From sequence record OZ335962.1: a stretch of DNA of 64,000 nt; one strand, given 5' to 3'. Both the position numbers and the translations under genes were made by a program. Shown here piece after piece: positions 38,873-39,700 of this stretch (the first letter of the stretch is position 1; the number at the start of each line of letters is the position of its first letter). The notes beneath the pieces were generated by a model, which saw only the letters and a list, made by a program, of their open reading frames with translations, was not told the DNA's origin and did not search any database. Source of the stretch: a phage.

Positions 38873-38948
38873 TGGTCGAGGCAGTAGGGATCGAACCTAC
38901 GACCCAGGACTTAGAAGGTCCTTGCTCTTCCTTCTGAGCTATGCCTCG
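38873..38948 (-). tRNA. tRNA-Arg (anticodon UCU)
   Basis: 76-nt cloverleaf read by hand: acceptor cgaggca/tgcctcg, anticodon loop cuUCUaa, T-loop ttcgatc, encoded CCA. Confidence 0.85.
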
Positions 38949-38952
38949 GATT

Positions 38953-39027
38953 TGGCGGACGTGATAGGATTCGAACCTATAACCAATCGCTTAACAGGCG
39001 ATCGCTCTGCCATTGAGCTACACATCC
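38953..39027 (-). tRNA. tRNA-Asn (anticodon GUU)
   Basis: 75 nt: acceptor ggatgtg/cacgtcc, anticodon stem atcgc/gcgat loop cuGUUaa, T-loop ttcgaat, encoded CCA. Confidence 0.8.
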
Positions 39028-39031
39028 AAAT

Positions 39032-39118
39032 TGGTGGGGAGTGATGGAGTCGAACCACCCGAGTCGCAATGACAATGGATTTACAGTCCACACCGCTACC
39101 TCTACGGGATAACTCCCC
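39032..39118 (-). tRNA. tRNA-Tyr (anticodon GUA), class II with long variable arm
   Basis: 87 nt: acceptor ggggagt/actcccc, anticodon stem gtgga/tccat loop cuGUAaa, 15-nt variable arm, T-loop ttcgact, encoded CCA. Confidence 0.75.
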
Positions 39119-39127
39119 AAATTAATT

Positions 39128-39202
39128 TGGTGGCCCTGGGTGGAATTGAACCACCATCTGGCGATTATGAGTCGCTTGCTTGAACCTTCCAGCTACAGGG
39201 CC
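39128..39202 (-). tRNA. tRNA-Ile/Met (anticodon CAU)
   Basis: 75 nt: acceptor ggccctg/cagggcc, anticodon loop cuCAUaa, T-stem ggtgg/ccacc, encoded CCA; T4 homolog reads AUA after lysidine modification. Confidence 0.8.
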
Positions 39203-39203
39203 T

Positions 39204-39279
39204 TGGTGCTGATTGACGGAATCGAACCGCCGACCTTCTCATTACAAGTGAGTTGCTCTACCTACTGAGCTAAATCAGC
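39204..39279 (-). tRNA. tRNA-Thr (anticodon UGU)
   Basis: 76 nt: acceptor gctgatt/aatcagc, D-stem gctc/gagc, anticodon loop cuUGUaa, T-loop ttcgatt, encoded CCA. Confidence 0.85.
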
Positions 39280-39284
39280 AAAAC

Positions 39285-39374
39285 TGGCGGAGGCGATAGG
39301 ATTTGAACCTATGAGTCGCCGGAGCGACTGCCGGTTTTCAAGACCGGTGCATTAAACCACTCTGCCACGCCTCC
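39285..39374 (-). tRNA. tRNA-Ser (anticodon UGA), class II
   Basis: 90 nt: acceptor ggaggcg/cgcctcc, anticodon stem ccggt/accgg loop cuUGAaa, long variable arm, T-loop ttcaaat, encoded CCA. Confidence 0.85.
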
Positions 39375-39376
39375 AG

Positions 39377-39450
39377 TCTCCATACAAGGATTTGAACCTT
39401 GGACCTCCTGATCCCAAATCAGGCGCTCTACCAAACTGAGCTACACGGAG
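39377..39450 (-). tRNA. tRNA-Pro (anticodon UGG), CCA not encoded
   Basis: 74 nt to discriminator: acceptor ctccgtg/tatggag (two G-U pairs), anticodon stem cctga/tcagg loop uuUGGga, T-loop ttcaaat; 3' flank is ctg, not CCA. Confidence 0.8.
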
Positions 39451-39460
39451 TAAATTAAAT

Positions 39461-39534
39461 TGGAGCGGATAATGAGAATCGAACTCACATCATCAGATTG
39501 GAAGTCTGAGGTAATACCATTATACGATATCCGC
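39461..39534 (-). tRNA. tRNA-Gly (anticodon UCC)
   Basis: 74 nt: acceptor gcggata/tatccgc, anticodon stem tcaga/tctga loop cuUCCaa, T-loop ttcgatt, encoded CCA. Confidence 0.85.
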
Positions 39535-39539
39535 AAATT

Positions 39540-39626
39540 TGGTGCGAGAAGTGGGACTCGAACCCACAAGGAAATCATTCCGCAGCATTTTAAGTGCTGT
39601 GCCTTTACCAATTTGACCATTCTCGC
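39540..39626 (-). tRNA. tRNA-Leu (anticodon UAA), class II
   Basis: 87 nt: acceptor gcgagaa/ttctcgc, anticodon stem cagca/tgctg loop cuUAAaa, long variable arm, T-loop ttcgagt, encoded CCA. Confidence 0.85.
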
Positions 39627-39627
39627 G

Positions 39628-39700
39628 CTGGGAATAAAGGACTCGAACCTTTGCATCCTGGAATCAAAATCCAGTGCCTTACCAACTTGGCTAATTCCCA
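39628..39700 (-). tRNA. tRNA-Gln (anticodon UUG), CCA not encoded
   Basis: 73 nt to discriminator: acceptor tgggaat/attccca, anticodon stem ctgga/tccag loop uuUUGau, T-loop ttcgagt; abuts tRNA-Leu 5' end. Confidence 0.8.

Follow-up and report, generated by a model that had tools for sequence, protein, structure and literature searches.

The ten-tRNA cluster of a T-even phage: an RB3/RB14/T2-type stable-RNA operon with tRNA-Tyr and tRNA-Asn where T4 has segB

The ten tRNA genes and their relatives

We analyzed a stretch of 64,000 nucleotides (nt) of phage DNA (sequence record OZ335962.1; referred to below as the window), in which a sequence-only reading had folded a cluster of ten transfer RNA (tRNA) genes by hand. 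ARAGORN returned the ten tRNAs as folded and no others in the 64-kb window; the ten genes occupy the minus strand from position 38873 to 39700 (Table 1). In order of transcription, these are Gln(UUG), Leu(UAA), Gly(UCC), Pro(UGG), Ser(UGA), Thr(UGU), a tRNA with anticodon CAU, Tyr(GUA), Asn(GUU), and Arg(UCU), separated by spacers of 0–10 nt. We also scanned the genes with the Rfam covariance model RF00005, counting as a canonical tRNA any gene that reached the curated gathering score of 29 bits and carried its anticodon in a 7-nt loop. All ten genes qualified, with the same anticodons in ARAGORN. Nine of the ten scored 59–74 bits, with E-values of 1e-10 to 1e-14; tRNA-Tyr had the lowest score, 30.2 bits. 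Sub-threshold Rfam matches to Plastid-ycf2, sX4, YrlA, and tRNA-Sec overlap the tRNAs and are a mere echo of tRNA structure. Thus, ARAGORN, RF00005, and direct reading of the strand bear out the coordinates, the order, and the ten anticodons of the sequence-only reading, and the covariance model rejected neither tRNA-Tyr nor tRNA-Asn.

Table 1. Coordinates of the tRNA genes and of neighboring features in the window (ORF, open reading frame; aa, amino acids).
Feature	Position	Strand	Basis and remarks
tRNA-Gln (UUG)	39627-39700	-	ARAGORN; RF00005 67.4 bits; CCA not encoded
tRNA-Leu (UAA)	39540-39626	-	ARAGORN; 59.3 bits; class II; CCA encoded; identical to the T4 sequence
tRNA-Gly (UCC)	39461-39534	-	ARAGORN; 65.8 bits; CCA encoded
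tRNA-Pro (UGG)	39376-39450	-	ARAGORN; 66.8 bits; CCA not encoded
tRNA-Ser (UGA)	39285-39374	-	ARAGORN; 62.6 bits; class II; CCA encoded
tRNA-Thr (UGU)	39204-39279	-	ARAGORN; 72.9 bits; CCA encoded
tRNA, anticodon CAU (best read as tRNA-Ile2)	39128-39202	-	ARAGORN; 59.9 bits; CCA encoded
tRNA-Tyr (GUA)	39032-39118	-	ARAGORN; 30.2 bits; class II; CCA encoded
tRNA-Asn (GUU)	38953-39027	-	ARAGORN; 74.1 bits, best of the ten; CCA encoded
tRNA-Arg (UCU)	38873-38948	-	ARAGORN; 65.8 bits; CCA encoded
SegB preferred 27-bp recognition site, exact copy, GGTTCGAATCCTATCACGTCCGCCAAA	38951-38977	-	T arm through CCA+2 of tRNA-Asn
MotA-box type middle-promoter-like motif (TGCTTTA, 12 nt, TATTAT)	39770-39794	-	pattern search; about 70 nt upstream of tRNA-Gln
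116-aa ORF, T2L trna.2 homolog	38506-38856	-	phrog_3355; no Pfam match; inside the stable-RNA operon
rnaD (species 2 stable RNA) homolog	38394-38509	-	97.4% identical to T2L rnaD over 116 nt
rnaC (species 1 stable RNA) homolog	38248-38387	-	99.3% identical to T4 rnaC
Intrinsic-terminator-like hairpin	38176-38199	-	10 pairs, 7 of them G-C, then a T run; about 50 nt after rnaC
157-aa ORF	37648-38121	-	phrog_2280; no Pfam match; between the rnaC terminator and e.8
Second terminator-like hairpin, after the 157-aa ORF	37619-37638		

The discriminator base and CCA are encoded by eight of the ten genes (Leu, Gly, Ser, Thr, CAU, Tyr, Asn, and Arg), as read directly from the minus strand. Only tRNA-Gln and tRNA-Pro lack the full CCA, and both encode C74 alone: tRNA-Gln ends in ...CCCAG-C, with G1 of tRNA-Leu as the very next base, and tRNA-Pro ends in ...GGAGA-C-T (A73, C74, T), followed by G1 of tRNA-Ser. 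The lack of a genomic CCA in these two genes had been claimed correctly, and the proposed need for its completion after processing is supported.

The tRNA with anticodon CAU had been given as “Ile/Met”; the anticodon is correct, and the ambiguity can be resolved. This tRNA is 76.3% identical to E. coli ileX versus 63.0% to metT, it has the anticodon arm GCGA-CUCAUAA-UCGC in common with ileX, and its acceptor strands (5' GGCCCUG, 3' CAGGGCC) include the pairs C4-G69 and C5-G68. We take these two pairs to be the determinants for TilS, reportedly described by Ikeuchi et al. in 2005. Since we distinguished tRNA-Ile2 from elongator tRNA-Met by the presence of C4-G69/C5-G68, closer likeness to ileX than to metT, and the lack of initiator features, all of which apply, this gene is best read as an Ile2-type tRNA, predicted to be lysidine-modified and to read AUA, and not as tRNA-Met. 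As tRNA-Ile2 reading AUA, it matches the A-ending-codon logic of the other T4-type tRNAs.

The locus is an RB3/RB14/T2-type stable-RNA operon of Tequatrovirus, and is already known. The 828-bp cluster matched 856 phage records, with at least 80% of its length covered in 398, and full-length clusters were 99.2–99.9% identical in PE37, BW-1, pSs-1, RB14, RB3, RB5–RB9, and many others. The records of RB3 (AJ884578) and the RB14 genome (FJ839692) annotate the same ten tRNAs in the same order, Gln-Leu-Gly-Pro-Ser-Thr-Ile(CAU)-Tyr-Asn-Arg; in these and in RB1 (AJ884577), tRNAs, order, and spacing are those of the window, with 99.2–99.5% identity over 828 bp, and the genomic position of the cluster is also shared, with the trna.x/ipI genes on one side and rnaD-rnaC-e.8 on the other. 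Similarly, the cluster in the window lies 3' of gp57/ipI/trna.x and 5' of rnaD, rnaC, and e.8. It differs from RB3 and RB14 by two extra small ORFs that are interleaved, as in T2L/BW-1: a T2L-type 116-aa trna.2 ORF between tRNA-Arg and rnaD, and a 157-aa ORF after rnaC. The ORF arrangement of BW-1 is the same as that of the window. T2L (AJ880101; PMC2330249) is 97.1% identical to the window over the 1039 nt of Ile(CAU)-Tyr-Asn-Arg-trna.2-rnaD-rnaC; however, in T2 and T2L an ORF, trna.1, replaces tRNA-Thr, leaving nine tRNAs, whereas the window retains tRNA-Thr. The surrounding 24 kb is 96–98% identical to many Tequatrovirus genomes, indicating that the source is a T-even phage of ordinary type. 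The tRNA regions of T2L, RB1, and RB3 were sequenced in 2008 (Brok-Volchanskaya et al., PMC2330249). Hence, the suggestion that the arrangement is something unusual is not justified: hundreds of Tequatrovirus genomes carry it in their annotation, a detailed account of it appeared in 2008 (PMC2330249), and as a discovery the cluster carries no weight.

tRNA-Tyr, tRNA-Asn, and segB

The tRNA-Tyr gene is identical to that of T2 at 86 of 87 positions and to that of T6 at 85 of 87, and is 83% identical to T5 tRNA-Tyr and 65% identical to E. coli tyrU. Homologs with 80–98% identity occur in Vequintavirus, Felixounavirus, Tequintavirus, Epseptimavirus, Jiaodavirus, Kanagawavirus, and others; some of these are labeled “tRNA-Pseudo-GTA” or “tRNA-OTHER” in GenBank, with “pseudo” labels in IME523 and KP1. 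We aligned 11 sequences from several phage families and measured pairing across the helices: 99.2% of cells were paired, and compensatory changes were observed in 16 of 23 pairs. These values were reached by none of 500 shuffles, and controls in which the helices were slid paired at ~50%. In the D stem, a helix of 3 bp lies two bases away from the usual position, and this register was paired in 97% of cells; by contrast, the canonical 4-bp register was paired in 61% and was rejected. The displaced 3-bp D stem accounts for the marginal Rfam score. The minimum-free-energy fold of the single sequence is not a cloverleaf (z-score −0.91), but such folding is uninformative for tRNAs. With its GUA anticodon, its class II variable arm, and covariation supporting all helices, the gene belongs to the T5/T6 phage-type tRNA-Tyr family. 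The T5 member (Azam et al. 2024, PMC11555353) has the same shifted D stem and an identical variable arm and T arm, although T5 is of a different phage family with a much larger tRNA region, and its tRNA-Tyr differs in the acceptor, D, and anticodon stems by compensated changes. We also observed that tRNA-Tyr (39032-39118) is ~96% identical between Tequatrovirus and the otherwise unrelated Vequintavirus DrSchubert, where it lies 4 nt after tRNA-Arg(AGA); this likeness suggests horizontal movement between phage families. In two distant phages, Klebsiella phage KP182 and Salmonella phage Arash, an annotated endonuclease gene follows phage-type tRNA-Tyr by 5–17 nt, an echo of the SegB-tRNA association described below.

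T4 (NC_000866) is annotated with the order Gln, Leu, Gly, Pro, Ser, Thr, Ile, segB, Arg, rnaD, rnaC, in agreement with the eight specificities that had been attributed to it (Arg, Gln, Gly, Ile, Leu, Pro, Ser, and Thr). Gene order, the upstream leader, rnaC, and the lack of CCA on Gln and Pro are alike in T4 and the window; five tRNAs (Gln, Leu, Gly, Pro, and Ser) show full or almost full identity, and three positions distinguish the Thr alleles. A three-way alignment showed near-perfect identity from the leader through tRNA-Thr, after which T4 diverges. For tRNAs Ile and Arg, T4 has other alleles, with 61% and 62.5% identity to those of the window, in which tRNA-Arg is of the RB3/T2 type. Between them, segB, a GIY-YIG homing-endonuclease gene, occupies the exact place of Tyr and Asn. 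In T4, tRNAs Ser and Ile also lack an encoded CCA, whereas it is encoded in the window, T2L, and RB3; the CCAG difference at tRNA-Ser between T2L and T4 has been noted before (PMC2330249). Because CCA is encoded on Ser and Ile, the host CCA-adding enzyme is needed for two tRNAs here rather than four. The anticodon arm of tRNA-Gln also differs: the stem is CUGGA/UCCAG in the window and UAGCA/UGCUA in T4, by compensated changes, and the window has U32/U38, with a loop matching E. coli glnU, where the T4 allele has C32/C38.

T6 resembles an intermediate state, with the order Ile, Tyr, segB, Arg, such that Tyr is kept and only Asn is replaced by segB; T6 has lost Pro and Ser, and tandem amplification of Tyr-segB is possible in it (Chihara et al. 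2026, PMC13096335). With no segB, the window is closed to this route of amplification. We considered whether T4 could be a simple deletion derivative of the T6 arrangement, and rejected this; the leaders upstream of segB differ and no simple deletion can be read from them. In the T6 record (MH550421), positions 1192–1266 are annotated as “tRNA-Thr”, but consist of the 5' part of tRNA-Pro (CTCCGTGTAGCTCAGT) fused to a Thr body. This gene was not called by ARAGORN, in a phage without Pro or Ser genes, and is apparently a chimera of Pro and Thr left by a deletion, its acceptor stem mismatched.

The tRNA-Asn gene is identical to that of T2 at 75 of 75 positions, and is 62% identical to E. coli asnT. 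The preferred recognition site of SegB has been mapped to 27 bp within T2L's gene for tRNA-Asn (PMC2330249). The window carries an exact copy of this site, GGTTCGAATCCTATCACGTCCGCCAAA, as do the T2L and RB3 records, and the whole of tRNA-Asn is identical in T2L; the site reproduces the five stated differences from the Ser site, G6, A16, G18, A26, and A27 (site as described in PMC2330249). A tblastn search with T4 SegB detected no SegB homolog in the 64-kb window. The locus is thus a segB-minus homing target, and is not a T4-type eight-tRNA cluster with segB between Ile and Arg. In crosses of T4 with T2L, segB was inherited by 99.6% of progeny and the T2L block was lost (PMC2330249). With the SegB target present and segB absent, conversion of this cluster to the T4 arrangement would be expected in a mixed infection.

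The sequence-only reading described Tyr and Asn as inserted between Ile and Arg. The reference phage T4, with its eight tRNAs and nothing homologous to Tyr or Asn, agrees with such a gain of two tRNAs by one phage or small lineage, which would make the cluster an unusual variant. This is nevertheless very unlikely, given that the Tyr+Asn pair is present in 447 phage records as compared with 126 for full-length segB, that Tyr-Asn adjacency is seen in more distant phages too, that segB lies precisely at the Tyr/Asn position in T4 and replaces only Asn in T6, that the SegB target is within tRNA-Asn, and that homing turns the Tyr/Asn arrangement into that of T4 experimentally (PMC2330249). The polarity is most likely the reverse. 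The ten-tRNA state is the common one among T-even phages; it is probably also the older one, judging from the comparison of arrangements, with T4's eight tRNAs the product of a segB invasion in which segB, whose preferred target lies in tRNA-Asn, would have taken the place of Tyr and Asn. One of the two genes, tRNA-Tyr, could be argued to be a pseudogene, and we considered this because its 30.2 bits barely exceed the gathering score and because of the “pseudo” labels on the IME523 and KP1 homologs; the single-sequence fold that is not a cloverleaf points the same way. It was ruled out by the covariation across 11 homologs, which backs every helix, including the shifted D stem. Moreover, the T6 gene is expressed and active in rescue (PMC13096335), and, according to its annotation, the T5 homolog can be converted into an amber suppressor, making decay of this gene extremely improbable. 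By the covariation, tRNA-Tyr is to be regarded as a constrained tRNA, and not a pseudogene.

Flanking features and the proposed transcript

Upstream of tRNA-Gln, the MotA-box motif overlaps the stop codon of a 171-aa ORF. Matches to the pattern TGCTTYA-N11-13-TANNNT are enriched in the window (15 versus 2.19 expected), and 13 of the 15 are on the minus strand, e.g. at 1137-1161, 1766-1791, 42804-42827, and 43318-43343 in addition to that at the cluster. By contrast, a scan for sigma-70 promoters around the cluster was not above chance (17 found versus 14.7 expected).

Downstream of tRNA-Arg, ~10 nt separate the CCA from the start of the Shine-Dalgarno sequence of the 116-aa ORF, and the stop codon of this ORF lies across the 5' end of rnaD; RB3, RB14, and T4 lack the ORF. 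No Rfam family covers rnaC or rnaD. The rnaC homolog is predicted to fold very stably (−50.1 kcal/mol, z-score −4.7). At its 3' end, an acceptor-like stem closes a T arm resembling that of a tRNA (CCGGGUUCGAAUCCCGG), and the core of SegB sites, GGTTCGAATCC, is also present in the homolog. The hairpin that follows rnaC is likely the end of the operon, as judged by its stem and T run. BW-1 also has the 157-aa ORF beyond this hairpin, which RB3 and T2L lack. For the 116-aa, 157-aa, and 171-aa ORFs, searches returned only PHROG families of unknown function and no Pfam match.

Processing of T4 tRNAs classically involves RNase P, RNase BN, and the CCA-adding enzyme; Abelson, McClain, and Guthrie are said to have worked on the dimeric T4 tRNA precursors. 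We propose that the operon in the window is transcribed as a single RNA, probably from the MotA-type middle promoter ~70 nt 5' of tRNA-Gln, with read-through from early promoters upstream, and that this RNA would comprise, in order, the ten tRNAs, the small ORF, rnaD, rnaC, and the terminator. Host RNase P would cut at the 5' end of each tRNA, and host 3' exonucleases would trim the other end. The cut at tRNA-Leu would leave tRNA-Gln ending in G73-C74, and the cut at tRNA-Ser would leave tRNA-Pro ending in A73-C74-U; these two tRNAs would then be trimmed and completed by the host CCA-adding enzyme, whereas 3' trimming back to the encoded CCA would suffice for the other eight.

Translational supply and counter-defence

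We compared codon counts between 100 ORFs of the window and a sample of 89 annotated E. coli K-12 genes. The A-ending codons served by the eight T4-type tRNAs (CAA, UUA, GGA, CCA, UCA, ACA, AUA, and AGA) are enriched 1.5- to 6.7-fold over E. coli in this phage of 35% GC content, the largest enrichments being those of AGA (6.7-fold), AUA (3.5-fold), and UCA (3.1-fold). The three most over-used amino acids are, in order, Lys (1.70-fold), Asn (1.59-fold), and Tyr (1.56-fold); codons UAU and AAU are enriched 2.2- to 2.7-fold, and Asn reaches 71.9 per 1000 codons in late-strand structural ORFs as compared with 38.2 in E. coli. These values support the idea of codon-usage adaptation raised by the sequence-only reading. 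For two amino acids that are used ~1.6-fold more, the host has a single isoacceptor each, and tRNAs Tyr(GUA) and Asn(GUU) are duplicates of these; the duplicates would raise supply and buffer the infected cell against loss of the host species.

The second idea raised was the replacement of host tRNAs cleaved by anticodon nucleases. The Septu PtuAB nuclease cuts tRNA-Tyr in the variable arm (PMC13096335). Retron-Eco7 PtuAB does likewise, and T5 tRNA-Tyr counters retron-Eco7 (PMC11555353). For T6, deletion of the tRNA region sensitizes the phage to Septu, and over-expression or gene amplification of tRNA-Tyr restores growth; T2, which has tRNA-Tyr, is resistant, and T4, which lacks it, is sensitive (PMC13096335). 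The published role of T6 tRNA-Tyr, which differs at only two of 87 positions from that of the window, is a dosage-dependent supplement against Septu PtuAB (PMC13096335). By analogy with the T6 and T5 genes, the same buffering by tRNA-Tyr of the window would act as counter-defence. Hence, the replacement of cleaved host tRNAs is upheld for tRNA-Tyr, but the nuclease concerned cuts the variable arm and not the anticodon.

tRNA-Thr differs from E. coli thrU at 12 positions, three of which, G30C, C40G, and U43A, are in the anticodon arm, and positions 27 and 43 were flagged as not pairing with each other in the covariance scan. tRNA-Thr6, the strongest rescuer of P2-OLD toxicity, has been described as having 12 differences that include G30C/C40G and U43A, and both sets of changes are required for protection (PMC12445682). 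Compared with that description, tRNA-Thr of the window has the UGU anticodon, a CNG motif broken by G30C/C40G, and a stem shortened by U43A, and so carries the published P2-OLD-resistance signature. Positions 27, 43, and 45 distinguish it from the T4 and RB3 alleles, and position 73 additionally from that of RB3; in both T4 and RB3 the C27-G43 pair is restored, and their tRNA-Thr may be without this property. The anticodon stem of tRNA-Asn, AUCGC/GCGAU, lacks the paired CNG motif of host asnT (GCGGA/UCCGU). Cleavage by P2-OLD is associated with the paired motif, and host tRNA-Asn has been reported among its substrates. A specific counter-defence role of the phage tRNA-Asn would be the only potentially new element of this locus, and one that we put forward as doubtful. 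The whole array could be viewed as multi-target “tRNA insurance”, with Thr against P2-OLD-type nucleases, Tyr against Septu and retron-Eco7, and Asn against a nuclease yet to be assigned; this proposal is a tentative one that we consider unlikely as it stands. Asn and Tyr tRNAs are both of the queuosine family (GUN), the kind cut by colicin E5.

Both functions could be pressed to an extreme. If Tyr and Asn, like the other eight tRNAs, only matched an AT-rich, Asn- and Tyr-rich proteome and had no defence role, their place as second and third most enriched amino acids, the enrichment of UAU and AAU, and the Asn content of late-strand structural ORFs would all be accounted for; however, Lys is enriched more and has no tRNA in the cluster, the near-identical T6 gene shows a defence phenotype (PMC13096335), and T4, which lacks Tyr and Asn, grows well on standard hosts, such that supply as the whole explanation seems rather improbable. 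Counter-defence as the chief reason for keeping Tyr, Asn, and Thr, as replacements or decoys against the PtuAB nucleases of Septu and retron-Eco7 and against P2-OLD, with codon supply incidental, draws on published experiments (PMC13096335, PMC11555353, PMC12445682), on the exact G30C/C40G and U43A changes in tRNA-Thr, on the tRNA-Asn stem without the paired CNG motif of a host tRNA that is itself a P2-OLD substrate, and on the occurrence of phage-type tRNA-Tyr in otherwise unrelated phage families. Against it stand the very good fit of the eight A-ending-codon tRNAs to codon demand, an anticodon loop of tRNA-Tyr that is the host's, and the cleavage of T6 tRNA-Tyr by Septu, and we rate it no higher than the explanation by supply.

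We are highly confident of a combined explanation: a T-even operon that serves translational supply, with a counter-defence function for tRNA-Tyr, in which segB accounts for the arrangement of T4. Nothing was found that contradicts the identification of the locus. Several points do count against parts of this explanation. No tRNA-Lys is encoded in the cluster although over-use is greatest for Lys, and thus demand alone does not predict the tRNA set; sequence does not settle the relative weights of supply and counter-defence. The ancestral status of Tyr and Asn rests on frequency, homing biology, and the T6 intermediate, and not on a rooted phylogeny, and the promoter, the terminator, and the order of processing are drawn from motifs and classical T4 knowledge. 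We know of no defence system that is countered by a phage tRNA-Asn. Finally, T6 tRNA-Tyr is itself cleaved by Septu (PMC13096335), indicating that it protects by dosage rather than by resistance.

At this locus, the textbook reference T4 is atypical for its genus, owing to a selfish endonuclease. The two “extra” tRNAs are those that are now linked (Tyr) or plausibly linked (Asn) to the evasion of bacterial immunity that targets tRNAs. With an intact tRNA-Tyr, an intact tRNA-Asn with its SegB site, and a tRNA-Thr allele of the OLD-resistant type, the genotype of this phage predicts a phenotype on hosts with Septu or retron-Eco7 and on P2 lysogens. If the “tRNA insurance” proposal were true, segB invasion in T4-type phages would trade away part of the set of genes for evading immunity.

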